A stretch of DNA of 64,000 bases from Dehalococcoidia bacterium. GTDB lineage: Bacteria; Chloroflexota; Dehalococcoidia; Lucifugimonadales; CAZENU01. Below the pieces are notes generated by a model. The model did no database searches. It was not told the origin of the DNA and was given only the letters and a program-made list of their open reading frames with translations. Numbering within the stretch: position 1 is the first letter of the stretch; each line of letters begins with the position of its first letter. This document shows positions 328-19,853 of the stretch, in pieces. The DNA lies in assembly GCA_965222125.1 (NCBI GenBank), contig CBDCTC010000004.1, positions 130,299 through 194,298 of the forward strand, written 5' to 3'. A program made the position numbers and the translations under genes.

Positions 328-441
328 AGTGGTTTGGAGGGGGCACCTCCCAACGGCCCACAGCCAGGCGCGCGGATGGTGCGCCGGCCGCGTCCGAGTG
401 ATAAGCTGAGCGCGCGAACGTCACCGGAGAGAGGGAAAGAC

Positions 442-1956: not shown

Positions 1957-2124
1957 GGAGACCTTTGCATAACCGTCATTCCCGCGCAGAGCCTGCCCTC
2001 GTGAAGACGGGGGCGAGAATCCAGGGCAAGGGGTGGGGATGGGTTCCCGTCTCCACGGGAACGACGGGCGGAGGCGCCGCACCTTCACTATTACTCCCGC
2101 GAGGGGGTTACGCAAAGGTCTGAT
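1957..2124. repeat. REP-like repeat cluster (inverted unit GAGACCTTTGCATAACCGTCATTCCCGCG, a 48-bp hairpin module, and a terminal unit ...CCCGCGAGGGGGTTACGCAAAGGTCT)
   Basis: It fills the 198-bp spacer between two + strand genes. It contains CCGTCATTCCCGCG at 1973-1986. Module 2029-2076 is identical to 3599-3646. Confidence 0.8.
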
Positions 2125-2154
2125 AGGCGGGAACGACATGGGAGGATCGCCCGG

Positions 2155-3366: not shown

Positions 3367-3425
3367 CCCGCCCCGGTAGGGCTCTCGGGCCGTACGTCCA
3401 GGGAGCCCCCTCTCTCTCGACCAGG

Positions 3426-3697
3426 CCTCTTGCATAACCGTCATTCCCGCGACACGGAGACGTTTGCACAACCGTCATTCCCGCGAAAGCGGGAATCTAG
3501 GGGTGAGTTGTCCAGCTAAGAAATCTACGTATCTCCACGACATTCGTCTCCCACAAGGGGAGTTGCGCAAAGGTCTCCGGACGCGGGAAGCAACGGCGAG
3601 GGGTGGGGATGGGTTCCCGTCTCCACGGGAACGACGGGCGGAGGCGGCGCACCCACACCGTCATTCCCGCGAGGGAAGTTACGCCAAGGTCTCTCGA
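3426..3697. repeat. REP-like repeat cluster (at least 4 units plus the 48-bp hairpin module)
   Basis: CCGTCATTCCCGCG occurs at 3438-3451, 3472-3485 and 3658-3671. A perfect hairpin ATTCCCGC-GAAA-GCGGGAAT lies at 3477-3496. The module at 3599-3646 is identical to 2029-2076. The cluster lies between convergent genes. Confidence 0.8.
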
Positions 3698-3720
3698 CAG
3701 GAGCGGGTGAGCGTGACGCG

Positions 3721-4854: not shown

Positions 4855-5235
4855 GTGCTCCCTCCCGACGAACGATGGCGGCCGATACGTCGCGCCCTGT
4901 CAGACGACGTCGTGCGCCGGCGCTCGCCTCAATTACACCACGACACGGATTCGTTTTCAAAGGTGACGTGGTCTCTTCGGCTGCTCAATTGCCCCGGAGA
5001 CCCCGCATTGCCGCTGGTGGCAGAGTTGCCCGCCTTGGTGCCCAGGCCGGCCTGCACGGGACGACTCCTTCAAGAAACAACCCCCGTGGGTGCGTGGTAG
5101 ACTAGCAAGCGTCGTCGGCGCCTCTCAGCGGGGTTGGGCATCCCGCATCGTAAGAATCGTAAGAACCGAGGGGGTCGTCGCGTCACCCACGCTGCGCCGG
5201 AACGTTGCGCCGAATCGGCCGGAGGACTCTCCAAG

Positions 5236-6105
5236 ATGATAAAACTGGCGTGTAACTCGTTGATCGCGGTCGGGGACGGCCAGTCGATGGACGCCGAGGA
5301 GTTCGTCGAGCTCGCATACGAGTTGAGACTCGACGCCGTCGACTTCCAGCTCGACCGCGGGCTGCGCTCACGCGACCGCGGCTACCTGCTGCGTCTGAAG
5401 CGGGCGTGCCTGAACCGCGGCCTGCCCATAGGCTTCCTCGGCATCGGCAGCGGTTTCATCGGCTCGACCGCGCCGCCGCATCTCGGCGGCGTAGGCGCGC
5501 CGCTGCCGCGTGAGGAGCTGCGCCGGCGCATCGACGAGGCCAAAGCGGCCGTCGACGACGCGGCCTACATGGGAGCGCCGCTGATACGGATCTTCGGCGG
5601 CAGCATCCCGGAGGCCACGGAGAGACGCGACGAGCTCTGGTCGGAGATGATCGCCAGCTACCAGGAGGTCGCCGACTACGCGGCCGGCCGGGGCGTCTTC
5701 ATAGGGCTGCACAACCACCCGCCGGTCGACTCGCCGACCGGCGACGACATACTCCGCATCCTGCGAGACACCGACCGGCCCAACTTCACCTTCATACTGG
5801 ACACCGGGCGCTGGTACGGCTCCCCAGGAACGGCCCCGATGGGCGAGACGGATCCTGACGTGGACATCTACGAGTACATGGAGCAGACGGCGCCGTACGC
5901 GTCGTACGTCAGGGCGAAAATATACAAGATCGACAGCGGCCGCGAGGAGTGGATTGACTACGGTCGAGTGATGGAGGTGCTCCAGGCCGTCGGCTTCAAC
6001 GGAACGATCTCGATCGTCTACGAGGACCAGGGCAACGCCTGCGATCCCCGCGAGGCCATCGCCCTCGCGGTGGCGCACCTAAGGGACGCAATTGCGGGCG
6101 CCTGA
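5236..6105 (+). CDS. Sugar phosphate isomerase/epimerase (xylose-isomerase-like TIM barrel)
   Basis: Track ORF 5134..6105 was trimmed to ATG 5236, which has GGAGGA 10 nt upstream. Motifs include MIKLACNS..., ...IRIFGG... and ...IGLHNHP..., typical of AP-endonuclease-2/xylose-isomerase-like barrels. Confidence 0.7.
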   Translation: MIKLACNSLIAVGDGQSMDAEEFVELAYELRLDAVDFQLDRGLRSRDRGYLLRLKRACLNRGLPIGFLGIGSGFIGSTAPPHLGGVGAPLPREELRRRIDEAKAAVDDAAYMGAPLIRIFGGSIPEATERRDELWSEMIASYQEVADYAAGRGVFIGLHNHPPVDSPTGDDILRILRDTDRPNFTFILDTGRWYGSPGTAPMGETDPDVDIYEYMEQTAPYASYVRAKIYKIDSGREEWIDYGRVMEVLQAVGFNGTISIVYEDQGNACDPREAIALAVAHLRDAIAGA

Positions 6106-6165
6106 AGGTCGAAGCGCGTCGATGGCCTGCGGCCGAATGGCCGATCCCCATGCGGGGGACGTCGG

Positions 6166-6564
6166 ATGAGCGAGAAGCGCTTCACGCTGGACGAGGCCCG
6201 CGGCCTGGTTCAGTGGCTGCAGGAGACGTTCGACAGCCTGGCGCCGCTGCGCGACCGGATGCTGCGGCTCCACGGCGAGATCGACGAGATGGTCGAGCGC
6301 AGGCGGTCCAACGGGGGTAGCCACCCGGAACAGCGGCTGGACCTGAGCCGTCGCGCCCTGTCCGAGGTCGCGGAGACCCTCTCCGAAGAGCTGCGCCCCG
6401 TGCTGGAGCGCGGGATACTGGTCAGGAGCGTCGACAGGCCGCTGGTCGACTTCCCGTCGACGCGCGAGGGCCGCGAGGTGTACCTGTGCTGGCTCGGCGG
6501 CGAGACGGACATCGAGTTCTGGCACGAGACCGACACCGGTTTCGCCGAACGCCAGGCGCTGTGA
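6166..6564 (+). CDS. DUF2203-like small protein
   Basis: 132 aa. The pattern FTLDEARGLV... through ...RGILVRSVDRPLVDFPSTREGREVYLCWLGGETDIEFWHE matches what I recall for DUF2203. Confidence 0.55.
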   Translation: MSEKRFTLDEARGLVQWLQETFDSLAPLRDRMLRLHGEIDEMVERRRSNGGSHPEQRLDLSRRALSEVAETLSEELRPVLERGILVRSVDRPLVDFPSTREGREVYLCWLGGETDIEFWHETDTGFAERQAL

Positions 6565-6672
6565 CATGCGCCGTTGGGGCACCGCATTCGTCCCCCTTGC
6601 GGCAGCTTCACTCACCGTCGTCGTAGCGTGTACAATCTCGCAGGCCGCATCGATGGAGCCAAGGAGTAGCGA

Positions 6673-6969
6673 ATGATAGTCGTCCGTCGGACATACACGC
6701 CGCAGCCCGGCGGGGGTGGGCTTGTGGAGCACCTGAGGGAAGTGGGCTGGGCAACCGTGGAGGCCGGCTTTCCTCCGATCGCGATCTACCGGCGGGTGCT
6801 CGGCCCGCACGGGACGCTGGTCACCGAGCAGCGGTGGCCGTCCATCGCGGCGTACGAGGACTCGCGCAAGCGTGTCCGCGCGACGTCCGCGATCACCGAC
6901 ATATTCGGCCGCATCTACCCGCTGCTGGCGTCCACCCACGTCACCGAGATATACGAAGACGTCGACTGA
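6673..6969 (+). CDS. Hypothetical small protein (possibly a ferredoxin-like/NIPSNAP-like fold)
   Basis: 98-aa ORF on the same strand as its neighbour, with AAGGAG 7 nt upstream of the ATG. No diagnostic motif. Confidence 0.5.
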   Translation: MIVVRRTYTPQPGGGGLVEHLREVGWATVEAGFPPIAIYRRVLGPHGTLVTEQRWPSIAAYEDSRKRVRATSAITDIFGRIYPLLASTHVTEIYEDVD

Positions 6970-7032
6970 GCGCACGCCCGGCGCGTTCCGCGCCAAGCCC
7001 GCGACAGATCGGCAGGGGCGGGTGCCGCCCGG

Positions 7033-8397
7033 CTAGCGGAACTTGAACGCGTACAGGTCCGCGTCCTTGATGACGAACCGCAGCCGCACCGGCCTGCCAG
7101 CCATCGCGCTCACGTCGGTCACCCCGTTCCAGGACACCACGCGCTCTATGCTGTCGCCGTACATCGGCGAGCAATCGTCCAGCGTGTGGCCGGGCACGGG
7201 ATAGCCGTCCGGGTCCTGCATCTCGACCCGCACGGAGCCCACCGCTGACGTCGAGAAGTTGATGGTCAGGTTGCTGCGCGCGAACCGGAAGGGGCGCGTG
7301 CTGAACTCGCCGCCCGCGTATCCGGCCTGCACCGACACGAAGCCGTCCGTGCGCAGCACGTACCGCCGGATGCGCATCGAGTCCAGGTGCGAGTGTTCCA
7401 TGCCGTAGATTGACAGCTCCTCAGGCGATGTTTGCAGGATGCCGCGCTCGACGTAGATGCCGCGGTCGTGCCAGTTGTTCTTGTCCAGACCCGGCCGGAT
7501 GAACGCCTCCATGAAGCTGCGGTCGAAGTGCAGCCCGTCCCGGCTCGACATGAACACGATGTCGCTGACCCCGGTGCTGTACGTCCAGTCCGGGTCCGGC
7601 ACGCGGTCCACGACGAACCGCGACGGGAACATCAGGTACGTGCCGGGCGCGCGCTCGTACTGGACACAGGCGTTGGTGTACAGGTGCTCGAACGGCGTGT
7701 CGCCCGCGTCGATCAGCTCCAGCGGCGTCCACTCGCGGAAGTCCTTCGACGTCGTCCGCCTGATCCAGCGCACACCGCCCTTGAAGCTGCCCTTGCCGGC
7801 GACGCCCCGCGTGTATGCGACGTACTCGTTACGCCAGACGTCCCAGAACGCGATGTTGACCGAGTCGAACGGCCCGTCCGTAAGGATCGGCTCGTCCTGT
7901 ATGAGGCGCCACCGGATGCCGTCGGGCGACACGAGCGCCCGAACTACTGCGTTGCCCCGGATGATGGTCTTGTAGCGCTCGTCATCGGGAACGTCGGGAT
8001 TCGGATCGCGAAAGGGGACCATGTTGGCGCCCGGGCCCATCCAGACGAGGTTGTTGGCCGTCGAGCCGTTCACCTCGAAGAGTCCCAGGTCCGGCTTCTC
8101 CCAGTGGATTCCGTCCGCGCTCTCGGCGTAGGCCGTATCGTGGCCGCTGCGCCTGAGATGCATCGACGGATCGTGGTCGCACCGGTACCACGCCCGGAAC
8201 CTTCCGCCGTCCTCCATGAACCCCGCGCAGCAGGCGCCGGTGTCCCACGGCCGGTCGCTGGCGATCGCGACCTCCCGCCGTTCCGGGCTGTGGAGCCGCC
8301 GCTCAACGCCGCGGCTTTCCTCTATCCAGAAGTCGTCCACGAAGAGCTGCCGGTCCCTGCCGATGTCGGTAACGCTGTCGGAGGTTGTCATCTGCAT
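7033..8397 (-). CDS. Glycoside-hydrolase-like beta-propeller protein; paralog of 442..1956
   Basis: Track ORF 7033..8529 was trimmed to ATG 8397, which has AAAGGA upstream. The trim also removes the overlap with the upstream methyltransferase gene. N- and C-terminal motifs are shared with 442..1956. Confidence 0.75.
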   Translation of the reverse strand: MQMTTSDSVTDIGRDRQLFVDDFWIEESRGVERRLHSPERREVAIASDRPWDTGACCAGFMEDGGRFRAWYRCDHDPSMHLRRSGHDTAYAESADGIHWEKPDLGLFEVNGSTANNLVWMGPGANMVPFRDPNPDVPDDERYKTIIRGNAVVRALVSPDGIRWRLIQDEPILTDGPFDSVNIAFWDVWRNEYVAYTRGVAGKGSFKGGVRWIRRTTSKDFREWTPLELIDAGDTPFEHLYTNACVQYERAPGTYLMFPSRFVVDRVPDPDWTYSTGVSDIVFMSSRDGLHFDRSFMEAFIRPGLDKNNWHDRGIYVERGILQTSPEELSIYGMEHSHLDSMRIRRYVLRTDGFVSVQAGYAGGEFSTRPFRFARSNLTINFSTSAVGSVRVEMQDPDGYPVPGHTLDDCSPMYGDSIERVVSWNGVTDVSAMAGRPVRLRFVIKDADLYAFKFR

Positions 8398-8426
8398 TGG
8401 TTCCTTTCGTGTTGTCGGTAAGCTTG

Positions 8427-9131
8427 TCAGCGCCTCGTCCAGACGCCTTCCCATTGTGCCCACGAGCCACGTTCCGGGGCCTCTCGCGGTATCGTCTCCT
8501 CCGTCGGCGGCACGAGAGCCGTAAAGCACGGCGCCAGCATGCCCTCCAACTCCCCAAGAGCAAGAAAGTGGACTGCCAGGCCCGCCTTCGGGCCCTCATG
8601 ATACCTTACCGTGAAGTCGCCTTCATCGTTTCGCTCGATTACATCGTGGGCATGGTAGACGTCGGTCGACGCCGAGTTGACGCGAACGAAGAGCAGCCCA
8701 CCGTCTCTCAGCAGCGTCGCGGCGTGGGCGAACATAGCCCGCACCGTCGCTTCCGTGCCGTGCTGGAAGACCTGTATGGCGACGATGTAGTCGAACAGCC
8801 GCTCCGGATCGAAGTCCAGAAAGTCGGATTGGACCAACCGGGGCGCCAGACTCGGACGTCCAGCCCGGAGCTGAGCGAGCGCTTCCCCAGACGAGTCGAG
8901 CCCGATGACGTCCAGGCCCGCGTCGACAAGGGGAATGTAGTTTCGCCCGTTGTCGCATCCGACGTATAGTCCCTTGCCGCGCATGATCTCAGGTCGATCG
9001 CGAAGGACGTCCACGATCCGGCCGGCAAACGGAATCGGTGGCTCGTTCCGGTATCGTCCGCGCCTGTACTCGTCGTCCCAGACGGCCCCGCGCTCTCCTG
9101 ACAGCACTGCCGCATGCTCCATATTGTTCAT
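8427..9131 (-). CDS. Class I SAM-dependent methyltransferase
   Basis: 234 aa. Motif I-like LYVGCDNGRNYIPL, followed by VIGLDSS and an acidic post-I region. Confidence 0.7.
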   Translation of the reverse strand: MNNMEHAAVLSGERGAVWDDEYRRGRYRNEPPIPFAGRIVDVLRDRPEIMRGKGLYVGCDNGRNYIPLVDAGLDVIGLDSSGEALAQLRAGRPSLAPRLVQSDFLDFDPERLFDYIVAIQVFQHGTEATVRAMFAHAATLLRDGGLLFVRVNSASTDVYHAHDVIERNDEGDFTVRYHEGPKAGLAVHFLALGELEGMLAPCFTALVPPTEETIPREAPERGSWAQWEGVWTRR

Positions 9132-9266
9132 GTAGCGGCGCGGTCGTTTCCCCCGAACGCGCGCCGAGTGTAGTCAACCTGCCTTGGACTACAATGAGTG
9201 TACACGTCGGACGAATACAGCGACACCGGCCGACGCGGCCCTTGCGAGCTTTGGCGCCGTTGAAGA

Positions 9267-9602
9267 GTGGGAGAGCGGAGCGTGGTCGCTTCAGACACAG
9301 TGATTTCGACTATGGTCGACCGTATCGTCGAGCGGTTCCGACCTGAGAGTATCCTGGTCTTTGGTTCTCGGGCGCGAGGCACTGCGCACCGATGGAGCGA
9401 TGTCGACATTCTCGTCGTCTTGCCAGAGGTTCTGGACAAGCGTCGCGCCGCAATCGACATTCGCAGGCCTCTGGGGGATCTTCCGACAAGTAAAGATGTG
9501 GTGGTGACGACGCCCGAAGAAATCGAGTTGCGAGGGCATGTCGTGGGTAGCGTACTCCATGCCGCGCTCCGAGAGGGAAGGGTCGTCTATGAGCGACCCT
9601 GA
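9267..9602 (+). CDS. Nucleotidyltransferase-domain protein (MNT/MntA-like minimal NTase)
   Basis: 111 aa. It has ILVFGSRARGTAHRWSDVDILVV, the G[SG]-X9-13-DxD pattern of pol-beta-type NTases. The local GC content is lower than the surroundings. Confidence 0.7.
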   Translation: MGERSVVASDTVISTMVDRIVERFRPESILVFGSRARGTAHRWSDVDILVVLPEVLDKRRAAIDIRRPLGDLPTSKDVVVTTPEEIELRGHVVGSVLHAALREGRVVYERP

Positions 9603-9611
9603 CCTCGTCGC

Positions 9612-9890
9612 TTGATGGTCGCGTGGTATGATCAGCACTTCGGCTATCGGATCGAGCCCTACGGATCGGTCGAGGACGCTATCAAGTCGTGGTCCGCTAC
9701 AGCCCCGTGCGTTGGAGTCCGCTATGGGCACGGCAAGGTTACGGTCTACGCGCCGTACGGTCTGGCCGATTTGCTGGGGATGGTTGTCAGGCCAAACAAG
9801 GTCCAGGTCACGAAAAAGGTCTACCTGGAGAAAGCCAAGCGATGGACACGCGGTTGGCCAGACCTGCAGATCGTGGCAATGGTGAGTTGA
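9612..9890 (+). CDS. Hypothetical protein following the NTase
   Basis: 92-aa ORF starting 10 nt after the NTase stop, with a TTG/ATG start. No recognisable motif and no HEPN Rx4-6H motif. Confidence 0.35.
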   Translation: MMVAWYDQHFGYRIEPYGSVEDAIKSWSATAPCVGVRYGHGKVTVYAPYGLADLLGMVVRPNKVQVTKKVYLEKAKRWTRGWPDLQIVAMVS

Positions 9891-9909
9891 CCTGCGCCGA
9901 TACCGTCGC

Positions 9910-10884
9910 TTACGCGCCGCCGGTAACTTCGTCGACGAGGGCTTTGATGTAGCCCATAGCGTAGGCCTCAGAGGCGTACCAAGACCAGCCGGGCGAACCG
10001 ATGCCAATTGACGGCACGTGGTCCGGGATGAACGGCCCGTCGAAGCCGACCTCGTGGTAGGCGCGCATCGCCTCGAGCATGTCCACGTGGCCCTCGTCGA
10101 TGAACGTCTCCCGGAACCTCGGGATGGGGCTCGAGACGTTCCGGAAGTGGACGTAGAAGATCTTGCCCTGACCGCCGAACCGCCGGATGGCTCCGATCAC
10201 GTCTTCTGGCATCTCCGCCACGGTGCCCTGGCAGAACTCGAGGCCGCTGTAATCGCTGGATACTGTGTCGCATAGACGCTGGAGCGCGTCGTGGCTCCGC
10301 AGGATACGTGGCAGTCCAGCTAGCGGGGAGATGGGCGGATCGTCGGGGTGAACACCGATCCTGACGTCGGCCTGCTCGGCCACCGGCACGACCGCCTTCA
10401 AAAAGTACTCGTAGTTCGACCACATTTCAGCGTCCGAGACCTCGCCGTGCTCAGTCAACGGCGCGTCGCGAACGAGCTCGTAGTCGAAGCTGGAGACTCG
10501 AGAGCCGCCGCGACCGCGTGCGTCTGCTGAGGTACGCCACGCGTAGCCGGTCCTGCTGCGCATCGGCATGAAGTTGTATCCGAGAACCGGAACACCGGCC
10601 GCGCCCATATTGCGTAGCGTCTTGCAGACGTTGTCGATCTGCTGGTCCCGACCCGGTAGGCCAAGCTTGATCTTGTCCATCCACTGCTGCGGCAGGTTCT
10701 CGATGGCAGTGAGTTTCATCCCCGCGGACTCGACCCTCGTCCGTAGCCGCAGCAGGTCGAGGTACTCCCAGTGGCCCGCATCCTCCGGGAGTCCGCCGCC
10801 GATGACGTCGGTCGCTCCGAGCTGGGCACCAAACGCCAGCAACTCGTCATTCACGCCGCCGCGCGCGTCGAGACCAAGCTTCAT
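9910..10884 (-). CDS. uxuA: Mannonate dehydratase-like protein (UxuA family, xylose-isomerase-like barrel)
   Basis: Track ORF trimmed to ATG 10884, which has GAGGAG upstream. It has HPDDPPISPLAGLPRIL, the HPDDPP...GLPRI signature I associate with UxuA. Confidence 0.6.
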   Translation of the reverse strand: MKLGLDARGGVNDELLAFGAQLGATDVIGGGLPEDAGHWEYLDLLRLRTRVESAGMKLTAIENLPQQWMDKIKLGLPGRDQQIDNVCKTLRNMGAAGVPVLGYNFMPMRSRTGYAWRTSADARGRGGSRVSSFDYELVRDAPLTEHGEVSDAEMWSNYEYFLKAVVPVAEQADVRIGVHPDDPPISPLAGLPRILRSHDALQRLCDTVSSDYSGLEFCQGTVAEMPEDVIGAIRRFGGQGKIFYVHFRNVSSPIPRFRETFIDEGHVDMLEAMRAYHEVGFDGPFIPDHVPSIGIGSPGWSWYASEAYAMGYIKALVDEVTGGA

Positions 10885-10906
10885 CGAAAACTCCTCATCT
10901 GAGGTC

Positions 10907-11944
10907 CTATCCCGCCGGGACCTTCCGGTAGATCTGGAACCTGTGGCGCCGGTGCTCCAGGACATAGAGGCGCTCCTCGTCGTCCAGGATCAGCGAGGTC
11001 AGGCCCCAGAAGTAGGGCTCGATCTGGGACGACTCGTTGTTGGGGTCCTGGAGGTGCTCCGGCAGGGGAGAGTAGAGGTCGGCGATCGCCCTGGTGTCCC
11101 GCTCGTCGACGTTGGACTCGAAGAAGTCCTCGGTCCACTTCGTCAGCGTGGCCTGGCCCCGCAGCTTCTGCACGAATGCGCCATCCGGGTCCAGGACCTG
11201 GACGCGGTGGTTGCCCCAGTCGGCGATGTACATGTACCCGTCGGCGTCGACCACCACGACGGACGGCCGGTCGAGCTGGCCGTCCCCGCGACCCGACTCG
11301 CCGAAGCTGGCGACGAAGCTGCCATCCGTGGTGAATTTCTGGATCCGGTCGTTGCGCCAGTCTGCGACATACACGTTGTCCCGCGAGTCTACGGTGACGC
11401 CCCAAGGCATGTTGAACTGACCCTCGCCGCCGCCGAAGTCGCCCCACTGCCGCTGGTACTCTCCCTCGGTCGTGAAGACCTGGACGCGGTGGTTGTGCTG
11501 ATCGACGACGTATGCGTTGTCGGCCGAGTCGAAGGCGATGCTGCACGCGCCGTTCAGCTCGCCGTCGCCGCTGCCGTGCTCCCCCCACTCGCCGACGAAG
11601 CCGCCGTCCGTCGTGTAGACGAAGACCTTGTCCTTGGCTTCGTCCGCGACGTAGAGCCGCTCCCGGCCGTCGAATACCATGTCTGAGGGGGCCTGGAACT
11701 TCTGGTCGCCCTCACCCTCGCCGTACCAGGTCGCGAACTCGCCCAGGTAGTCCTCGTCGAAATTGCAGATCGTTATGCGGATAAGGTTGCGGTCCACGAC
11801 GAAGAAGCGGCCATCGGAACTGCGGGCCATCGCGTACGGAACGAGAAAGCCCCGCCCGCGGGCCACGTTGCTGATCATGCCGATCGTCTTGACGTATTCG
11901 AGGGTGAACGGCGGCGCCGTTGCCGTCGTGCTCACTGAGGTCAC
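10907..11944 (-). CDS. NHL-repeat beta-propeller protein (copy 1)
   Basis: 345 aa with repeated blades ...YVVDQHNHRVQVF..., ...YVADWRNDRIQKF..., ...YIADWGNHRVQVL.... No N-terminal signal peptide. Confidence 0.85.
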   Translation of the reverse strand: MTSVSTTATAPPFTLEYVKTIGMISNVARGRGFLVPYAMARSSDGRFFVVDRNLIRITICNFDEDYLGEFATWYGEGEGDQKFQAPSDMVFDGRERLYVADEAKDKVFVYTTDGGFVGEWGEHGSGDGELNGACSIAFDSADNAYVVDQHNHRVQVFTTEGEYQRQWGDFGGGEGQFNMPWGVTVDSRDNVYVADWRNDRIQKFTTDGSFVASFGESGRGDGQLDRPSVVVVDADGYMYIADWGNHRVQVLDPDGAFVQKLRGQATLTKWTEDFFESNVDERDTRAIADLYSPLPEHLQDPNNESSQIEPYFWGLTSLILDDEERLYVLEHRRHRFQIYRKVPAG

Positions 11945-12001
11945 CTCCGTGTTGGTGCGGCGAAGGCCTGTCGAGGCTTGCGTCCCGGTCGTCCGCGAGA
12001 C

Positions 12002-13408
12002 CTAGGCGAACTGGTACTCCGGAGACGACGCTATGAGGCTGAGCAGCTCGCCGACGCGCTTTTCGGACTCCTCGTCCCGGCCGTCTCCGAGACGCACGCC
12101 CCCTCGTCTTGAGACGTGTTCGATCAGCGACTCCCGGGTCTCGGCGGAGGCCGGCACCGGCCCTGCGAGATCCAGGCAGCCGTCGACCGTCTCTTCCGGC
12201 GACAGCGTGCCGCCGTTGCTCGAGCCCAGCCTGTCGATGATCGCGCGTACCCCCGGCTGCGACACGTCGCTCAGCTCCTTGGCGGCCAAGTTGACCCGCT
12301 CGACCACCGATCCGCTGTAGAGCCACTCCGAGCCCTCGTGCCATCCCTCAACCGATGGAGGCCGCAGGAGGCCCTGGCCCATGAAGTTGGAGGCGTCGAA
12401 CCGGCCGCCGTCGCTCGCCTTCGGGGTCTGGCAGCTCCCGGCCATGTGAATCGCGCCGACCACGAGCTCGACCGGGTTCTTGACGCGGGCGAACCGCGCG
12501 GCGTCCGACATGAAGTAGTCGGAGTTGAACATCGTACGCAGCACGGCGCGTATCTCGAACTCCGAGTCGAAATAAGACCGGACCATGTCGTCGACGAGCT
12601 CCTCGCCCTTCTCGCCGATCTCATCGGCGACGAAGTACTGGAACAGCCGGGTGCTTATGAACCGGGCGGTCGCCTCCTGTCGGACGATGATGTCGACCAC
12701 GTCCTCGCCGTTGAAGTTGCCCGTCTCTCCGAGGAACGTCTTCTCGCCGTCATCGTGGTCCTCGGGCCGGTACTCGAAGTGCCACGCGATGCGCCCGTAG
12801 GGCGAGAAGGAGTCCTTGTTGGCCTTGACAGCCATGTACTCGGCGTTGGCGATCGTCCAGCCCGTAAAGGCCCGGGCGCACTCTTTGACGTCCTGCTCCG
12901 TGTACGAGCCGATGCCCATGGCGAACAGCTCGAGCAGCTCGCGACCGTAGTTCTCGTTGACCGAGCCCTTCTTGTTGTCGTTGTTGTCCAGCCAGAAGAT
13001 CATCGCCGGGTCGCGGGACAGCTCGATCAGCAGGTCGCGGAAGCTGCCCAGCGAGTTCTCCCGGAACTTCTGGATCTGGTTGAGCTGCGACCGCGCCTGG
13101 TTGCCCTTCGCGTAGCCGACGGCGAACAGCCCGTGCCAGAAGAGCGTGATCTTCTCCTCCAGCGGGTTGCTCGTCGTAAGCATCCGGTAGGTCCAGTCGA
13201 TGGCTCCGCCTCCGGCGCCCTCGTCGTTCGCGAGGAAGACCCGTCGGATGATGTCCTCGGGCATCGTGTTCGGCTCGCCGGGATAGAGCAGGTCCTCCAC
13301 AGTCGCGTCGTAACCCCTGGCGACTTTGGCTTCGAGCTCGTCCCGCGTCGCGCCGAAGCCGGCGCGGCGCATCAGATGTGCCATCAACGCTATCCGGTCG
13401 TCTGCCAT
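12002..13408 (-). CDS. DUF1800-family protein (copy 1)
   Basis: 468 aa. The N-terminus ...LMAHLMRRAGFGATRDELE... and ...FWHGLFA..., ...MIFWLDN..., ...NENYGRELLELF are characteristic of DUF1800. No signal peptide. Confidence 0.85.
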   Translation of the reverse strand: MADDRIALMAHLMRRAGFGATRDELEAKVARGYDATVEDLLYPGEPNTMPEDIIRRVFLANDEGAGGGAIDWTYRMLTTSNPLEEKITLFWHGLFAVGYAKGNQARSQLNQIQKFRENSLGSFRDLLIELSRDPAMIFWLDNNDNKKGSVNENYGRELLELFAMGIGSYTEQDVKECARAFTGWTIANAEYMAVKANKDSFSPYGRIAWHFEYRPEDHDDGEKTFLGETGNFNGEDVVDIIVRQEATARFISTRLFQYFVADEIGEKGEELVDDMVRSYFDSEFEIRAVLRTMFNSDYFMSDAARFARVKNPVELVVGAIHMAGSCQTPKASDGGRFDASNFMGQGLLRPPSVEGWHEGSEWLYSGSVVERVNLAAKELSDVSQPGVRAIIDRLGSSNGGTLSPEETVDGCLDLAGPVPASAETRESLIEHVSRRGGVRLGDGRDEESEKRVGELLSLIASSPEYQFA

Positions 13409-13429
13409 CGTGGTCCTCCTGCGGGCGCT

Positions 13430-14563
13430 CTAGGCGGCGAAAAGGTCGAAGGCCTCGTACCTGCCGTTGACTATCGGCGCGGCGTCGAGGCTGAGCCACT
13501 GCTCCAGGACGGACGTGTAGGTGGAGCGGAAGTCGTTGTTGTAGTGCAGGTCGCCCTCGAGCTGGTCGTCATCGGCCAGAGACGGGTACTCGCCGTACAT
13601 GCCGCCCTTGACCGAGTCTCCGATGAGCATCGCCATGCCGCCCGAGCCGTGGTCGGTCCCCGAGCCGTTGTCCTTGATCCGGCGGCCGAACTCCGAGTAC
13701 AGGAACATCACCGTGTCCTCGTTGCGGCCGTGCTCGACGAGGTCGTCATAGAAGTCGCCGACGGCCGGCGCCACCTCGTTCCATAGCATCTCGTGCTTGA
13801 ACAGCTCGCCGGAGTGCGTGTCGAAGCTGCCGTGCTGCGTGAAGTAGACCCGCGTTCCGAAATCCGCGAACATCACCTGCGCCGCGCTCTTGAGGGACTG
13901 CGCCATGGGGTTGGCCGCGTACTCGACAGTCGACTCGTACGTCCCGGGCGCGGTCCTCAGGATGTCCGCTCCCCGGAGCGCGTCGAGGCCGGTCTGGCCC
14001 AGGAAGCCCATCACGGCATCCTTGCCCTCCGCCCCGCCATACATCTTGCCGAACGTCTCCAGCGCGTACTCCCTCAGCGCCTGGTCCTGCATGTCCGGGA
14101 ACAGGCCATACGTCTCCAGGTTGCCGACCGAGGCCACGGGCACTCCCGGGCAGCCCATCGCCCGCGGCAGGCCGCGGCCGAAGTTGACGCCTGCCAGCAC
14201 GTTCTCGCCGTTGGGGTCGATGTCGCGAATCGCCCTGCCGAGCCAGCCCTCGGTGCCGACCTCCTCGGCCAGCGCGGTGTGCCAGACGTCCATCGACCTG
14301 AAGTGGGACCGGTTCGGGTTCGGGTATCCGATGCCGTTGATGATGGCGACCTTGCCCTCGTCCCACAACCGTTTGATCGGCTCCAGGCCCGGCCTGAAGC
14401 CGACCTGGTCGTCGATCTTGATCACCGATTCGGGATCGATCGCGATCTCGGGGCGGGAGTCGTAGTAGAGCCCGTTGCCGTAGGGTACCAGCGTGTTCAT
14501 GTAGTCGTTTCCGCCGGACATCTGGACGATGACTAGGTTGCGGTCCCGGTTCGTGGTGGTCAT
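13430..14563 (-). CDS. DUF1501-family protein (sulfatase/alkaline-phosphatase-like; copy 1)
   Basis: Track ORF trimmed to ATG 14563, which has GAGGAGG upstream. Motifs include ...VIVQMSGGNDYMNTLVP..., ...GIGYPNPNRSHF..., ...YSEFGRR...GSGTDHGSGG. No twin-arginine or hydrophobic leader. Confidence 0.85.
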   Translation of the reverse strand: MTTTNRDRNLVIVQMSGGNDYMNTLVPYGNGLYYDSRPEIAIDPESVIKIDDQVGFRPGLEPIKRLWDEGKVAIINGIGYPNPNRSHFRSMDVWHTALAEEVGTEGWLGRAIRDIDPNGENVLAGVNFGRGLPRAMGCPGVPVASVGNLETYGLFPDMQDQALREYALETFGKMYGGAEGKDAVMGFLGQTGLDALRGADILRTAPGTYESTVEYAANPMAQSLKSAAQVMFADFGTRVYFTQHGSFDTHSGELFKHEMLWNEVAPAVGDFYDDLVEHGRNEDTVMFLYSEFGRRIKDNGSGTDHGSGGMAMLIGDSVKGGMYGEYPSLADDDQLEGDLHYNNDFRSTYTSVLEQWLSLDAAPIVNGRYEAFDLFAA

Positions 14564-14793
14564 GTCAGGCCTCCTCGTGGGGCTGTGACTGGCGACGCCG
14601 TGCCCGACGCGGCCCATCGGGCTTCAACGGATTGTATCAGAACAGTTATCCGTAGTCATGCCCTGTGGGCCCCTTATTTTCACGCCGTCGCGAGCCCCTG
14701 AGGCAAGAGACGAGCCCGCTTGTTTCCTCGCGTCATCCTCCGGTCGATTCCGGCGATGGAGCGGCTCGCTGCCTGGGGAAGGCCGGCGGAAAC

Positions 14794-15807
14794 CTACACG
14801 GTGTCCTGCGTCGGTACTCTGGGCGGTGGGGCCATCTGTGTCTCGTCCAGGGGGATGGCGTCCTTTTGGTAGACCTGCACGCGGGAGTGGCCGCTGTCGA
14901 TCACGACCATGCGGCCCCGCGTGTCGACGGTCAGCGAGGTGGGCCCAATGAAAGATTTCTCCGGCTCGAGGTCGGCCATCGAGCGGAGCCTCAGGACCTT
15001 GGCGTTCGCCAGAGTGTACTGTCGGGCCGACTTCGACAGCGTCCCGTCCCCCGTGAAGCTCTGAAGGTAACGGCCGCCGCGGTCGAACATCTGGACCCTG
15101 TGGTTGCCCAGGTCTGCCACGTACACGTCGCCATCCCCATCCGCGGCGATGCCGGCAGGCCGGTTGAACTGGCCGGCGCCCGCGCCCGTACCGCCGAATT
15201 CTCGAATGAAACGCCCCTCAGAGTCGAACTTCTGCACGCGGTCGTTGCGCCAGTCGACGACATACACGTCGCCGACCGGGTCCACGGCCATCCCCCACGG
15301 CATGTTGAGCTGGCCTGGCCCGGCGCCGAAGCTGCCCCACGCCGACAGAAATCGCCCGTCCTTCGTGAAGCGCTGGACGCGGTGGTTGAGCGTGTCGGAG
15401 ACGTACAGGTTCCCCTCGAGATCGAGCGCGATTCCCGAAGGTCCGTTCAGCTCCCCATGTTCTTCTCCGCGCTCGCCCCAAGACCACAGGAGCCTGCCGT
15501 CGCTGGTGATGACCGTAATGCGGTGGGCCGCCTCGTCGGAGACGTAGATGTTGTCCTCGGCGTCCATGGCGATCGCCACCGGCCACTGGAAGGCGGCCTC
15601 CGGTGCGCCTACCGGGCCCAGGAAATCGTCGTCCCACGTGAGCTTCCTGATCGGTGAGGAGCCCGGGAGCCGGCCAAGGACGTAGACGTTGTCGTCGGAG
15701 CCCACCGCCACGTCGACCGGCGCGTCGGTGACGCGCCTCATTCCCAGAGTCTTGACGTACGGAAACCCCGCCCTTAGCAGCGCGTACGGCATCGCCATGT
15801 CCGTCAC
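14794..15807 (-). CDS. NHL-repeat beta-propeller protein (copy 2)
   Basis: 337 aa with blades ...YVSDTLNHRVQRF..., ...YVVDWRNDRVQKF..., ...YVADLGNHRVQMF.... Paralog of 10907..11944. Confidence 0.85.
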   Translation of the reverse strand: MTDMAMPYALLRAGFPYVKTLGMRRVTDAPVDVAVGSDDNVYVLGRLPGSSPIRKLTWDDDFLGPVGAPEAAFQWPVAIAMDAEDNIYVSDEAAHRITVITSDGRLLWSWGERGEEHGELNGPSGIALDLEGNLYVSDTLNHRVQRFTKDGRFLSAWGSFGAGPGQLNMPWGMAVDPVGDVYVVDWRNDRVQKFDSEGRFIREFGGTGAGAGQFNRPAGIAADGDGDVYVADLGNHRVQMFDRGGRYLQSFTGDGTLSKSARQYTLANAKVLRLRSMADLEPEKSFIGPTSLTVDTRGRMVVIDSGHSRVQVYQKDAIPLDETQMAPPPRVPTQDTV

Positions 15808-15829
15808 CTCGTCCCGCGGCCCGGATGTT

Positions 15830-16978
15830 CTATCTGAAGGGACTGATCTGCTCGAAGGCTCCGGAGACGATGGGCACGGGGTCCAGACCCATCCACTGCT
15901 CTATGAGCGTCCCATACACTCCCCGGAAGTCGATGGTGTGCTTCAGGTCCTCGCCGCGCTCCCACCGGGCCGGGTCCAGGGGCGGATACTCGGCGTACAG
16001 TCCGCCCTCGACGCGGTCGCCGATCAGGAAGGCCCCGCCGCCGGACCCGTGGTCCGTGCCGGTGCCGTTGTCCTGCATGCGTCGGCCGAACTCGGTGAAG
16101 ACCAGCATTATGACCTCTTCGGACGCGTCGTGGTCCCGGAGGTCCTGGAAGAAGTCCATGATCGCCGCGGACAGGTCTGTCCACAGGGTCGCGTGAGTCG
16201 GCAGCTCGTTCGCGTGTGTGTCGTATCCCCTGGTGCCGCCGTGGATGACGTAGAAGATGCGCGTTCCCAGGCCCGCCAGGTGTACGCGCGCCACGTCCCG
16301 GAGGCTCTGCGCGATGGGGTTCGCGGCGTACTCCACCTCGGACGCGTACTGTCCCGGTACGTCCTTGAGGATGTCGGCGCCTCCCATGACGTTGACGACC
16401 GTCTGCCGGATGTAGTCCACCACCGGGCCAGTCCCGATTGCGGGGGCGTACATCTCTTTGAATACCCGCATCGCGTCGTTACGCTGGGTCTCCTCCGCTA
16501 TCGGCGTCATCAGGCCGTAGCTCTCGAGGTCGCCTACCGACGTAACCGGCACGTCCTGGGCAGCCATCGCGCGCGGCAGGCCCCTGCCGAAACTGACGCC
16601 GGTGAGTACGTTCTCTCCCCTGGGGTCGAGGTCCCTGATCGCCTTTCCCAGCCAGCCCTCGTAGACGAGCCGCTCGGGCTCGCACGTATGCATAATGTCC
16701 ATGCCGCGGAAGTGGGAGCGGTCGGCGTTGGGGTATCCGATGCCCTGGACGACCGCCACGTTTCCGCTGTCGTACATCTCCTTGAAGAGAGCGGCATTCG
16801 GGTGAAAGCCGAGCGTGTCGTTGATCGGCAGCACTTTGTCCTCGGGGATGCGCACCGTCGGGCGCGTGTCGTGGTACACGCCGCTGGTGAACGGGATCAG
16901 CGTGTTCATGAAGTCGTTGCCGCCGCTCTGCTGGACGACGACGAGGACGGGCGGCTTACCGTTTCCGTTGACTCTCAT
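15830..16978 (-). CDS. DUF1501-family protein (copy 2)
   Basis: The 794-aa track ORF (15830..18214) was trimmed to ATG 16978, which has GGGAGG upstream. Upstream of that point the frame overlaps the real DUF1800 gene. Motifs include VVVQQSGGNDFMNTLIP, GIGYPNADRSHF and FTEFGRR...GTGTDHGSGG. Confidence 0.85.
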   Translation of the reverse strand: MRVNGNGKPPVLVVVQQSGGNDFMNTLIPFTSGVYHDTRPTVRIPEDKVLPINDTLGFHPNAALFKEMYDSGNVAVVQGIGYPNADRSHFRGMDIMHTCEPERLVYEGWLGKAIRDLDPRGENVLTGVSFGRGLPRAMAAQDVPVTSVGDLESYGLMTPIAEETQRNDAMRVFKEMYAPAIGTGPVVDYIRQTVVNVMGGADILKDVPGQYASEVEYAANPIAQSLRDVARVHLAGLGTRIFYVIHGGTRGYDTHANELPTHATLWTDLSAAIMDFFQDLRDHDASEEVIMLVFTEFGRRMQDNGTGTDHGSGGGAFLIGDRVEGGLYAEYPPLDPARWERGEDLKHTIDFRGVYGTLIEQWMGLDPVPIVSGAFEQISPFR

Positions 16979-17040
16979 CCTCACAGACCTCCCGATAGCG
17001 CTACCTGCCGCATCCGCCTGTCGACAACGTCCGACCGGTC

Positions 17041-18414
17041 CTATGCGAACTGGAACTCCGCGGTGGAGACGATTAGCTGAAGCATGCGAACGGCCCTGGC
17101 GGTACTGCTCTCGCGATCGGAGTCGGTCTCGAAGCTCAGCGGGCCGCCGGCCCGGGCGTGCTCCAGCAGCGCGGTCCTCGTGACGTTCTCGACCGCCATC
17201 GGGCCCACCAGATCGAGGCATCTGTCGACGAACTCCTCCGGCTGAAGGGGAGACGCTTTGTCGAGCCGGCCCACTATCACAGCGACGCCCGGCTTGGCGG
17301 GATCTCCGAACTCTTTGACGGCGAAGTTGATGCGCTCGGTCATGGCGCCGCCGTCTATCCACTCGCGGCCGGTGTGCCAGCCCTCCACCGTGGGCGGGTT
17401 CATCAGCTCCTGCCCCATCGTCATGGCTGCGTCGGCGTACGCGCCGATGCCCGGGTGGGGGAACCGGTGCGTGCCCAGCAGCTTGACAACTCCGGCCACC
17501 AGCTCGGCCGGGCTCTTGACCCGCTTGAAGCGCGCCTCCTTGAAGAACTCGGAGTTGAACAGCACCCTCATCATGGCCCGGACCTCGCCGCCGGTGTCCA
17601 CGTAGGTCTCGACCAGCGCGTCGATGGCGTCCGGGTCCTGGGGAGGTTCGAGCTGCCACGCCGGCACCTGCGGCTCGTCGGCCACGAAGAAGTTGTACAG
17701 GTGCCGCGAGAGGAACTTCGCGGTCGCCTCCTGCCTCACGATGATCTCTATGATCTGCTCGCCGTTCAGGTTGCCGCTGTGGCCCAGGAAGGTCTTGAAG
17801 CCGTTGTCGTGCAGCTCCTCGCGGTAGACGAAGTCCGACCTGGTCTGGTTGGTGGGGTACTCGGGGATCGGCTGTGTTATCGTCCAGCCTGTGAACGCCC
17901 GGGCCGCGCTCTTGATGTCGTCCTCTGTGTAGTTGCCGACGCCCATCGAGAAAAGCTCCAGCAGCTCCCGCCCGTAGTTCTCGTTCGGCTGGCCATTCAC
18001 GTTCTCGTTGTTGTCGAGCCAGAAGATCATGGCCGGGTCCCGCGACAGGTCGGTCAGGATGGTCTTCATGTCGGAGAGGCCGTTTCTCCGGAACATGTCG
18101 ATCTGGTCGGCCACGTGACTGGCCTTGGTGTTGGCCGTCGCGAAGACGTGGTGCCAGAAGAGCGCCATCTTCTCTTCGAGCGGACGCCGGGAGTTGACCA
18201 TCCGGTATATCCACTGGTTCTTGCTGCCGAACCTGATACCGAAGTAGCGCTCGGCGATATCTTCGTCAATGTCGGGGAAACGCTCCGGGTGGAGGAGGTC
18301 GTCGACGACAGCCTCGTAGCTCCTAGAGGACAGGAGCTCAAGCTCGTCGCGGGTGGCGCCGAACCCGGCCCGGCGCATCAGATGGGCGATCAGATCAAGG
18401 TCGGACTCCTGCAC
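17041..18414 (-). CDS. DUF1800-family protein (copy 2)
   Basis: 457 aa. Motifs include ...LIAHLMRRAGFGATRDELE..., FWHHVFA, MIFWLDN and NENYGRELLELF. Paralog of 12002..13408. Confidence 0.85.
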   Translation of the reverse strand: MQESDLDLIAHLMRRAGFGATRDELELLSSRSYEAVVDDLLHPERFPDIDEDIAERYFGIRFGSKNQWIYRMVNSRRPLEEKMALFWHHVFATANTKASHVADQIDMFRRNGLSDMKTILTDLSRDPAMIFWLDNNENVNGQPNENYGRELLELFSMGVGNYTEDDIKSAARAFTGWTITQPIPEYPTNQTRSDFVYREELHDNGFKTFLGHSGNLNGEQIIEIIVRQEATAKFLSRHLYNFFVADEPQVPAWQLEPPQDPDAIDALVETYVDTGGEVRAMMRVLFNSEFFKEARFKRVKSPAELVAGVVKLLGTHRFPHPGIGAYADAAMTMGQELMNPPTVEGWHTGREWIDGGAMTERINFAVKEFGDPAKPGVAVIVGRLDKASPLQPEEFVDRCLDLVGPMAVENVTRTALLEHARAGGPLSFETDSDRESSTARAVRMLQLIVSTAEFQFA

Positions 18415-18524
18415 AGCGCACCTCCCTGCGACGAGGCTCGGCCAATCCCCGACATTCTAGGCCTGGGTCACTGCAATCGCAATACTTCCAAAGCGCCGCG
18501 GCGTAGATCCATGCGCCGATCCGA

Positions 18525-18552
18525 TTGACCAGGCGCTGCACATAGCGATAAT
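18525..18552 (+). promoter_or_regulatory. Candidate sigma70-type promoter (TTGACC-N16-GATAAT) for the FAD oxidoreductase gene
   Basis: The hexamers were read at 18525-18530 and 18547-18552 in the divergent intergenic region. Sequence match only. Confidence 0.3.
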
Positions 18553-18713
18553 CGTCGTCCCGAACAAGGCGAAAGGCCCAGGATCACCGGGACCCACACG
18601 GCCTTGCCAAGCCCGTGTCAGAGCACGACAATGGGTCGAAGCCGGCGGCAATACACATCGGAACGTGGCCGCGCCGGCGGCCACGCGCCAGATTCCGGAG
18701 AGCACGCAAGCCC

Positions 18714-19853
18714 ATGACCAGTAGCTCCTCAGACGTCGTGATAGTAGGCGGCGGCATCGTCGGCGCCGCCACCGCCTACTACCTCGCCTGCCGCGGCATC
18801 GCCAGCACGGTGGTGGAGCGCGACAGGGTGGCGGCGCACGCCTCCGGCTTCTCGTACGCGGCGCTCGGCACCTTCGACGAGGCCGGGATGGACGGCGCGC
18901 ACTTCGACGTGGCGTCTGAGGGGATGCGACTACACCGAGAGCTGGCCGACCTCCTTCCGGCGGAGACGGGGACGCAGACCGATTTCCGCAACCGTCCGCA
19001 GCTCTGGCTCGCCTTTACCGACGAGGAGATGGAAGAGGCGCGCAACCCGACCGGCTGGGCCAAGCGAAAGCAGGAATGGGAGGTCGAAGACCAGGGCCAG
19101 CGCGTCCGCATCGTCGACGCGGACGAGGCGAGGAGGATCGAGCCCCGCATCACGCCGTCCGCACTCGGAGCCGTCTACACGGAGGGCACGGCCGACGTGA
19201 ACGCCCATCGGCTGACCGTCGCGCTGGCGGCAGCCGCCGAAAAGCGCGGGGCCACGATACGCACCGGCGCCGTGGCCGACGTCGAGCGCAGCGGAGGCCG
19301 AGTCACCGGCGTCGTCCTGGAAAGCGGCCGAATCGACTGCGGCAGCGTCGTCGTGGCGATGGGCCCGTGGAGCGAGTTGGCCTCGGACTGGCTCGGCGTA
19401 CCGATTCGGATGAGCCCGTGGAAGGGCCAGATCCTGAGGCTCCGCCTCCCCGGTCCACCCATCGAGTGCTCGGTGGCCGGCTACGACCATTTCGCGTCGA
19501 CGAAGCCCGACGGCCTCGTGTGGGTCGGCCCGACCTTCGAGGACGCCGGCATCGACGAGACGACGACCCCCGAGGGCCGCGAGGAGATCATGGCGGAGGT
19601 GGTCAAGATCGTCCCGTCCCTTGCAGAAGGCGAGCTCGCGCTCCATACGGCGTGCGTGCGCCCGTTGTCCGCAGACCGCAAGCTCATTCTGGGGAAAGTC
19701 CCGGGCCTCGAAGGCGCATACGCGGCCACGGGCGGCGGACGGCTCGGCCTGATGATGGGCCCGGCGATGGGGTCGCTGACGGCGGAGCTGATCTCGACCG
19801 GCTCGACCTCGGTCCCACTGAACGAGTTCGACCCGGGGCGATTCGCCGAATAG
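18714..19853 (+). CDS. FAD-dependent oxidoreductase (DAO / glycine-sarcosine oxidase-like family)
   Basis: Track ORF trimmed to ATG 18714. The N-terminal dinucleotide-binding motif is DVVIVGGGIVGAATAYYLA, and the length (~380 aa) fits the family. Confidence 0.8.
   Translation: MTSSSSDVVIVGGGIVGAATAYYLACRGIASTVVERDRVAAHASGFSYAALGTFDEAGMDGAHFDVASEGMRLHRELADLLPAETGTQTDFRNRPQLWLAFTDEEMEEARNPTGWAKRKQEWEVEDQGQRVRIVDADEARRIEPRITPSALGAVYTEGTADVNAHRLTVALAAAAEKRGATIRTGAVADVERSGGRVTGVVLESGRIDCGSVVVAMGPWSELASDWLGVPIRMSPWKGQILRLRLPGPPIECSVAGYDHFASTKPDGLVWVGPTFEDAGIDETTTPEGREEIMAEVVKIVPSLAEGELALHTACVRPLSADRKLILGKVPGLEGAYAATGGGRLGLMMGPAMGSLTAELISTGSTSVPLNEFDPGRFAE

Follow-up and report, generated by a model that had tools for sequence, protein, structure and literature searches.

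The families DUF1501 and DUF1800 have been described as a conserved operon pair in which DUF1501 carries a twin-arginine translocation (Tat) motif (PMC5122149). Multiplied DUF1501 genes are further known from the Planctomycetes-Verrucomicrobia-Chlamydiae (PVC) superphylum, where they occur together with PSCyt/PSD1 in envelope modules (PMC3542564), and for the SAR202 clade Saw et al. (2020) reported COG3391, COG4102 and COG5267 as correlated, uncharacterised members of the 50 most abundant clusters of orthologous groups (COGs; PMC6946804). The locus characterized here lies on a stretch of 64,000 nucleotides from a Dehalococcoidia bacterium of the marine SAR202 clade (GenBank assembly GCA_965222125.1, contig CBDCTC010000004.1, positions 130,299 to 194,298), which as a whole will be referred to as the window. 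It carries two tandem sets of three genes, each encoding a DUF1800 protein, a DUF1501 protein and an NHL β-propeller, all of them devoid of a recognisable export leader. The three COGs of Saw et al. correspond to these families and come from the same clade; that study was restricted to the correlation of COG counts and analysed neither operons nor leaders (PMC6946804). An earlier interpretation made from the letters of the DNA (referred to as the sequence-only reading) knew of no described linkage to a dedicated NHL propeller; the co-variation of the three families in SAR202 had, however, already been documented (PMC6946804). What the present analysis adds is the organisation of the operons, their types of gene order, the lack of leaders in comparison to the Tat-type relatives and the restriction of the NHL gene to leaderless forms, as well as actinobacterial members of the system and its links to an importer and to a riboswitch.

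The best explanation for the locus, to which we assign a probability of roughly 0.6, is that two anciently diverged, autonomous modules stand in tandem, each encoding a cytoplasmic, hetero-oligomeric metallo-hydrolase of the alkaline-phosphatase superfamily. DUF1501 would be the catalytic subunit, with an alkaline-phosphatase/sulfatase-superfamily fold, and DUF1800 its obligate, all-alpha partner. The DUF1800-DUF1501 pair would represent the ancestral state, which is Tat-exported in other bacteria, and the NHL propeller would be a third subunit confined to the leaderless form, probably acting as a substrate-recognition or adaptor component. SAR202 bacteria would have multiplied this module, presumably for different substrates.

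All six minus-strand open reading frames (ORFs) proposed by the sequence-only reading are present (Table 1), and profile searches against Pfam placed the encoded proteins in the DUF1800, DUF1501 and NHL families as predicted. Both DUF1800 proteins passed the PF08811 gathering score of 26.1 with profile positions 1-418 of 419 aligned. The DUF1501 proteins likewise passed the gathering score of PF07394 (27), although the alignment covered no more than the C-terminal third of the profile (positions ~228-347 of 390), and full-length kinship to classic DUF1501 proteins was demonstrated using phmmer, by which query residues 1-371 were aligned. DUF1501-2 has thousands of homologues with a length of ~377 amino acids (aa). 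In the NHL proteins, both of which passed the PF01436 gathering score of 20, five (NHL-1) and three (NHL-2) repeats were scored, and the nearest PDB sequences of the propeller are the NHL domains of TRIM71, TRIM2 and PknD. NCBIfam holds no model for DUF1800 or DUF1501 and yielded only sub-threshold ScyF/ScyE-like matches for the propellers. Pairwise identities of 47% (DUF1800), 50% (DUF1501) and 39% (NHL) between the two sets clearly demonstrated that they are paralogous triplets. The genes are separated by 62 and 22 nucleotides (nt) within set 1 and by 21 and 57 nt within set 2, and no further DUF1800, DUF1501 or NHL copies were found in the window.

Sec or Tat leaders starting from any in-frame position had been judged absent, and the reading frames bear this out. 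In four of the genes an in-frame stop codon without any intervening alternative start is located shortly upstream of the called start, namely at a distance of 14 codons for DUF1800-1, 31 for NHL-1, 7 for DUF1800-2 and 19 for NHL-2. NHL-1 could also have a length of 334 aa, starting from the ATG at 15798. The frame of DUF1501-2 is closed 20 codons upstream, and the one ATG within this interval would add 18 polar residues. Stop codons thus rule out leaders for five of the six proteins. Only the frame of DUF1501-1 stays open, its upstream starts falling inside DUF1800-1 in another frame; the last 80 codons 5′ of the called start are rich in Arg, Gly and Pro and contain no hydrophobic run, and the protein has 11 residues in front of its first β strand and the GGND motif. 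A GGAGG-like Shine-Dalgarno sequence precedes every one of the six called starts. Across the clade, species representatives (one genome per species) were scanned with a DUF1501 alignment. Of the more than 596 relatives obtained, the 80 highest-ranking ones were used as loci, and all of these 80 derive from Dehalococcoidia/SAR202-cluster metagenome-assembled genomes (MAGs). Among ~245 proteins from these loci, the median distance between the upstream in-frame stop and the first conserved motif was 38 residues for DUF1501 and 26 residues for DUF1800. A single N-terminal 12-residue stretch with a hydropathy above 2.0 was detected, in a DUF1501 protein whose scored region takes in the first β strand. 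Gene calls made elsewhere agree on lengths of ~377 aa for DUF1501, ~470 aa for DUF1800 and ~340 aa for NHL.

The situation is different in the nearest relatives outside the clade. A search of 1.84 billion cluster representatives (50% identity) yielded 12,861 DUF1501 relatives, and leaders were compared for the 139 nearest non-clade representatives with a recognisable first motif. In this family, which is typically described as exported and often with a Tat signal on DUF1501, leaders of at least 25 residues were present in 127 and a strict RRxFL motif in 120 of the 139. Five Tat-type loci were traced to their contigs (L090, L092, L093, L095 and L097), and DUF1800 adjoins DUF1501 in all five. 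In three of them (L090, L092 and L093) DUF1501 bears the only leader, whereas in L095 and L097 DUF1800 has a Tat-like or hydrophobic leader of its own. A gene for a leaderless partner next to one for a Tat-bearing protein is classically taken as a sign that a folded complex is exported as a whole. Since DUF1800 lacks a leader beside a Tat-bearing DUF1501 in three of the five pairs, this arrangement suggests by analogy that DUF1800 and DUF1501 bind each other and that the folded heterodimer may be exported by hitch-hiking. For the same reason a leaderless DUF1800 is not unusual by itself; the discriminating feature is the missing Tat leader on DUF1501. The exported pairs, known from Proteobacteria and others, share with the window both Pfam families in adjacent position on one strand, a DUF1501 identity of 35-42% over the full length and the DUF1501 motifs GGxD, SHF, DTH, SEFGRR and TDHG, which are invariant in both groups. 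They differ by the RRxFL leader on DUF1501 and, in the five loci sampled, by the absence of an NHL gene, whereas the window proteins are leaderless and accompanied by the propeller. The gene downstream of the pair in L092 encodes a PAP2/CN-hydrolase fusion, and two genes of the TatA/B/E family are located near the pair in L097.

It might be argued that the window proteins are exported all the same, by missed leadered starts or by a hitch-hiking or non-classical route, and thus belong to an ordinary DUF1800/DUF1501 envelope system, as most of the family is Tat-exported and DUF1800 travels without its own leader in some pairs. We consider this hardly probable. Leaders are barred by in-frame stops not only in the five window genes but likewise in the ~245 SAR202 proteins and in the actinobacterial proteins described below, gene callers elsewhere give the same lengths, and no subunit of the trio bears a Tat leader on which the others could ride.

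The modules of Planctomycetes and Verrucomicrobia resemble those of the window in that many DUF1501 copies occur per genome, always together with a large partner protein (PMC3542564). In addition, DUF1800-2 showed a weak match to PSD2 (E = 0.015), and several homologues carry a precomputed PF07624 match. However, the planctomycete and verrucomicrobial partner contains cytochrome-c motifs and signal peptides and the system is predicted to reside in the envelope, whereas the window modules have neither heme motifs nor leaders and include a propeller as third gene.

Linkage to the propeller was evaluated for 73 DUF1501 anchors from the species-representative genomes that had 3 kb or more of sequence on their downstream side. 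DUF1501 is followed by DUF1800 in 61 of these, and in all 61 cases the next gene on the same strand encodes an NHL protein. In a second, independent sample of 80 metagenome loci, the NHL gene was found in 24 of the 26 loci with enough flanking sequence. It is also present in the three actinobacterial loci (L089, L098 and L099) and in the distant leaderless locus L088, and it is absent from all five Tat-type loci. The dedicated linkage of an NHL gene to DUF1501 and DUF1800 postulated by the sequence-only reading is therefore well founded, and it is specific to the leaderless forms.

Comparison of gene orders, written here with A for DUF1800, B for DUF1501 and C for NHL, clearly demonstrated that order and paralog type go together. 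The closest relatives, L010 (98% identical) and L008 (91%), share the complete layout A-B-C-B-A-C-UxuA with the window. In A-B-C modules of other SAR202 genomes all three proteins are closest to set 1, with identities of ~62-69% for DUF1800 and DUF1501 (62-63% for the orthologues of DUF1800-1) and 56-57% for NHL; in B-A-C modules all three are closest to set 2. A third order, A-C-B (DUF1800-NHL-DUF1501), was found in the metagenome sample. Over all loci 126 complete modules were obtained, comprising 71 B-A-C, 43 A-B-C, 11 A-C-B and one C-B-A. Distances within an order are smaller than those between orders in all three families, and Mantel tests over the 126 modules yielded r = 0.83 for A-B, 0.81 for B-C and 0.91 for A-C (p = 0.001 each). 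DUF1501 is the most conserved of the three proteins, followed by DUF1800 and then NHL; the propeller evolves fastest and co-diverges most tightly with DUF1800. Because the order tracks the paralog type for all three genes, the window is best regarded as two anciently diverged module types placed side by side, each with its own fixed order, and not as a recent, scrambled duplication. The swapped order of the first two genes had already been taken as an argument against a simple block duplication, with which these findings agree.

The same data bear on the possibility that the three genes have simply stayed next to each other in SAR202 by descent, without functional coupling, the tandem being a chance juxtaposition of abundant families. 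All three are among the most abundant SAR202 COGs (PMC6946804), so that chance adjacency is not negligible. Still, an adjacency on the same strand in 61 of 61 cases, the persistence of the trio in four different gene orders and in a second phylum, the co-segregation of paralog types and the high Mantel correlations make this explanation extremely improbable.

A nine-locus subset shows an additional gene. An ORF of ~168 aa without a Pfam match lies between DUF1501 and DUF1800, which are ~590-800 nt apart in these loci (L058, L062, L064, L067, L070-L072, L075 and L076), and the same loci contain an extra DUF1800-NHL pair. This ORF could be a fourth component of that module subtype.

Indications for the chemistry came from structure prediction. 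The AF2 model of DUF1501-2 (mean confidence, pLDDT, 62.5; predicted TM-score, pTM, 0.73) was compared to the PDB using Foldseek, yielding 61 matches at E ≤ 1e-3; the best 50 listed all belong to the alkaline-phosphatase superfamily, with TM-scores of 0.27-0.42. With E ~1e-5 and a probability of 0.9-1.0, they include carrageenan, ulvan, steroid and choline sulfatases as well as phosphonate monoester hydrolase, LtaS/LtaP, PbgA/YejM and MCR-1. This agrees with the clan assignment of DUF1501 in Pfam. Across 77 diverse leaderless and Tat-type DUF1501 members 24 columns are invariant. The candidate metal/nucleophile set would comprise D20, S86-H87, D248, H250, E291, R294-R295 and D304-H305 (DUF1501-2 numbering), all of which except S86 are invariant. 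By motif position, these residues may correspond to the Asp behind strand 1, to the nucleophile at the N-terminal end of a helix and to the D-H-G metal pair, features which, together with the predicted fold, DUF1501 would share with the superfamily. The two differ in that sequence identity amounts to only 7-17% and that DUF1501 lacks the formylglycine motif and would require one or more separate partner proteins. Neither DUF1501 nor DUF1800 gave a meaningful match to PDB chains, whether searched as single sequences or as profiles built from 12 and 77 sequences, and DUF1501 matched neither Sulfatase nor any other additional family in Pfam at E ≤ 10. Because the DUF1501 core is identical in exported and cytoplasmic forms, the same chemistry would be implied for both compartments. 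The AF2 model of DUF1800-2 is all-alpha (pLDDT 70, pTM 0.75) and found no structural match in the PDB; DUF1800 has many invariant charged residues.

The structural matches to sulfatases raise the question of whether DUF1501 hydrolyses sulfated marine organic matter as a sulfatase of the formylglycine type, a role suggested for other sulfatases of SAR202, a clade known for sulfatase expansions (PMC6946804). We regard this as very unlikely. The C/S-x-P-x-R formylglycine motif is absent from the nucleophile position of DUF1501, which reads P-N-R-S-H-F-R-S, Pfam returned no Sulfatase match, and the phosphotransferases LtaS, MCR-1 and PbgA were matched equally well. Moreover, no formylglycine-maturase family appeared among the recurrent neighbours or Pfam-annotated genes of the loci looked up, although no dedicated search was run. 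The serine/histidine nucleophile region and the lack of the C/S-x-P-x-R motif would favour a phospho-ester over a sulfate ester, and the likely substrate of the proposed hydrolase would be an imported small organic ester.

Several points weigh against the proposed three-subunit hydrolase. Our literature search found no paper assigning a function to DUF1501 or DUF1800. The DUF1501 model is mediocre, with active-site loops below a pLDDT of 50 in addition to the modest overall confidence and TM-scores given above, so that the tentative catalytic residues are assigned by motif position and not by geometry. S86, though found in at least 90% of the members, is not invariant, and scanning the NHL family for a catalytic motif revealed repeat-structural conservation only. 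Furthermore, the partnership is not strict. At twelve of the 73 anchors DUF1501 stands alone, neither a DUF1800 nor an NHL gene being present within 10 kb (L037, L041, L047, L053, L055 and L082, and the anchors of L031, L034, L038, L042, L045 and L050); some of these are syntenic with complete trios and seem to have lost their partners. Conversely, approximately 17 loci contain an extra DUF1800-NHL pair or an extra NHL gene with no second DUF1501, and DUF1800-NHL pairs without their own DUF1501 occur for example in L002-L007. Since both kinds of exception exist, neither the stoichiometry nor an obligate partnership holds strictly, and the partnership is flexible. The sequence-only description of the locus as a candidate cytoplasmic three-component enzyme system is nonetheless a fair one.

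The leaderless trio is not limited to Chloroflexota. Two distant leaderless representatives (L088 and L089) carry the trio, and relatives of one of them were found in Micromonospora musae (L098), Mycobacterium sp. SM1 (L099), a Mycobacterium MAG and Acidimicrobiia. The mycobacterial proteins are 50%, 43-44% and 35-42% identical to those of the window sets, which is comparable to the identity between set 1 and set 2. The module is therefore either older than the split of these lineages or has moved between them. In all three actinobacterial loci (L089, L098 and L099) the trio directly follows genes for a FecCD permease, an ATP-binding cassette (ABC) ATPase and a Peripla_BP_2 binding protein, which make up an importer of the heme/B12/siderophore class; in L089 and L098 DUF1800 overlaps the gene of the Peripla_BP_2 protein. 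The closest solved structures of the actinobacterial binding proteins are heme-binding (E 1e-12 to 1e-16), and the L098 permease is closest to BtuC (309.6 bits). A further importer link was detected in the marine locus L159 (4681-9110), where a cobalamin riboswitch (RF00174, 70.2 bits versus a gathering score of 31.5) is located 5′ of an operon encoding a Peripla_BP_2 binding protein, FecCD, an ABC ATPase and, as the fourth gene, a leaderless DUF1501 sharing 64% identity with DUF1501-2; DUF1800 and NHL genes are missing. The operon is followed by genes for NrdR and a class II (B12-dependent type) ribonucleotide reductase.

These findings might be explained by cytoplasmic processing or salvage of the cargo of BtuCDF/Hmu-type importers, such as a corrinoid, heme or siderophore, with the window copies having been uncoupled from transporters; examples would be a phosphodiesterase opening the cobamide nucleotide loop or a metal-releasing enzyme. 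The position of the actinobacterial trios directly behind importer genes, the heme-binding-like and BtuC-like importer components and the DUF1501 within the L159 operon all argue for it. The L159 riboswitch is the sole direct regulatory evidence on function and suggests that this particular DUF1501 is tied to corrinoid uptake. The link does not generalise, and L159 contains DUF1501 without DUF1800 or NHL. Rfam detected no riboswitch at the gathering threshold in the whole window or in L098, L099, L089 and L035, and a consensus-derived cobalamin covariance model run over ~2.4 Mb of related loci identified L159 only and nothing in the window. No FecCD or Peripla_BP_2 gene was found near the 80 SAR202 genome loci, and no IdeR box with up to three mismatches in the actinobacterial operons. 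In addition, many paralogs per genome are hard to square with a single cofactor-salvage role, and we therefore judge importer-cargo processing possible but unlikely as an explanation of the window locus. A cobalamin riboswitch initially suggested for L035 by a strict regular-expression match was refuted by Rfam as a false positive, and looser patterns performed no better than on reversed-sequence controls.

A broader proposal would be that leaderless DUF1501, with or without DUF1800 and NHL, constitutes a new cytoplasmic machine for BtuCDF/Hmu-type cargo, for example in cobamide or tetrapyrrole remodelling or as a salvage phosphodiesterase, which SAR202 would have expanded into an array of paralogous tools for the phospho-ester or metal-chelate parts of refractory marine dissolved organic matter. 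We consider this quite unlikely as well.

SAR202 bacteria form one of the most abundant clades in the dark ocean, and a role in turning over refractory dissolved organic carbon has been attributed to them. DUF1501 and DUF1800 rank among their most multiplied gene families, and both are large and widespread, DUF1501 with more than 12,000 clusters at 50% identity. The leaderless three-component form behaves as a co-evolving unit which is systematically unlike the Tat-exported two-component form. Together with the presence of the trio beside defined importer operons in cultured Actinobacteria, this makes the system experimentally tractable, providing candidate hosts, candidate catalytic residues and a candidate substrate class. 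The finding overturns nothing and does not reveal the chemistry, but it defines a large, abundant and experimentally approachable system in a globally important clade.

Table 1: Features of the window locus and of the actinobacterial trio loci. Coordinates refer to the window, or to the respective locus for the last three rows; A, DUF1800; B, DUF1501; C, NHL.
Feature	Coordinates	Strand	Remarks
DAO-family FAD oxidoreductase	18615-19853	+	divergent from set 1
Promoter-like site 5′ of set 1	18454-18482	-	consensus scan, 9/12 matches; consensus match only
DUF1800-1	17041-18414	-	457 aa; first gene of set 1 (order A-B-C); PF08811, 330.5 bits
DUF1501-1	15830-16978	-	382 aa; second gene of set 1; PF07394, 64.5 bits
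NHL-1 β-propeller	14794-15807	-	337 aa; third gene of set 1; PF01436, 134.6 bits
Inter-set spacer	14564-14793	-	230 nt; contains promoter-like site 14659 to 14631
DUF1501-2	13430-14563	-	377 aa; first gene of set 2 (order B-A-C); PF07394, 89.4 bits
DUF1800-2	12002-13408	-	468 aa; second gene of set 2; PF08811, 346.3 bits
NHL-2 β-propeller	10907-11944	-	345 aa; third gene of set 2; PF01436, 89.0 bits
UxuA-like / xylose-isomerase-like TIM-barrel gene	9910-10884	-	22 nt 3′ of NHL-2; PF03786, 222.5 bits, partial
Terminator-like hairpin	9840-9823		downstream of UxuA-like gene
M. musae trio locus (L098)	3693-10153 (contig RAZS01000002.1, trio at ~110.4-113.4 kb)		importer genes, then leaderless DUF1800-DUF1501-NHL
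Mycobacterium sp. SM1 trio locus (L099)	2069-10147		importer genes, then leaderless DUF1800-DUF1501-NHL
L089 trio locus	145-4752		same layout; lipoprotein-type binding protein

Scanning positions 9500-19000 with a promoter consensus yielded only two promoter-like sites on the minus strand, one 5′ of each set. The site in front of set 1 lies between set 1 and the divergently transcribed DAO-family gene, in the intergenic region common to both; the site in the inter-set spacer also shows 9/12 matches, with a TG extension, and is again a consensus match only. The two sets are probably transcribed separately.

The UxuA-like gene had been taken to place the locus at the end of a sugar-acid catabolic cluster. 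This context was rejected, since the gene varies by strain and scores below the NCBIfam cut-offs for mannonate dehydratase (176.6 bits versus 191 for PRK03906 and 115.2 versus 199.55 for TIGR00695). Among the related loci it follows NHL-2 in the closest relatives L008 and L010 only, and L001, which has otherwise the same block with an identical DUF1501-2, lacks it. The UxuA-like gene is thus a strain-variable passenger outside the conserved module. At the corresponding position L001 carries a HEPN gene (13695-14144), and an MNT-type nucleotidyltransferase is encoded in the window at 9267-9602, which suggests that the region 3′ of NHL-2 (window 9267-10884) is a toxin-antitoxin insertion hotspot.

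Genes beyond the trio are not conserved, the commonest neighbour family being present in 23 of 81 loci. LutABC, VOC/glyoxalase, GGT, methyltransferase, HpcH aldolase and DAO genes were considered as functional clues and dismissed, as each occurs in at most 23 of the 81 loci and they look like lineage synteny. The DAO family was found in nine of the 81 loci, in most cases on the strand opposite to the DUF1501 anchor and, as a rule, one to four genes upstream of it. An enolase-superfamily gene, an Amidohydro_2 gene and a xylose-isomerase-like TIM barrel make up the wider neighbourhood in the window, which is the usual SAR202 mixture of multiplied enzyme families. The window further contains two paralogous genes at 442-1953 (plus strand) and 7033-8394 (minus strand), belonging to a family of ~450-500 aa without a Pfam match and with the N-terminal motifs KKQLFLDDYL and DRQLFVDDFW. 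This family recurs in 12 of the 81 SAR202 loci and looks like another multiplied SAR202 family.

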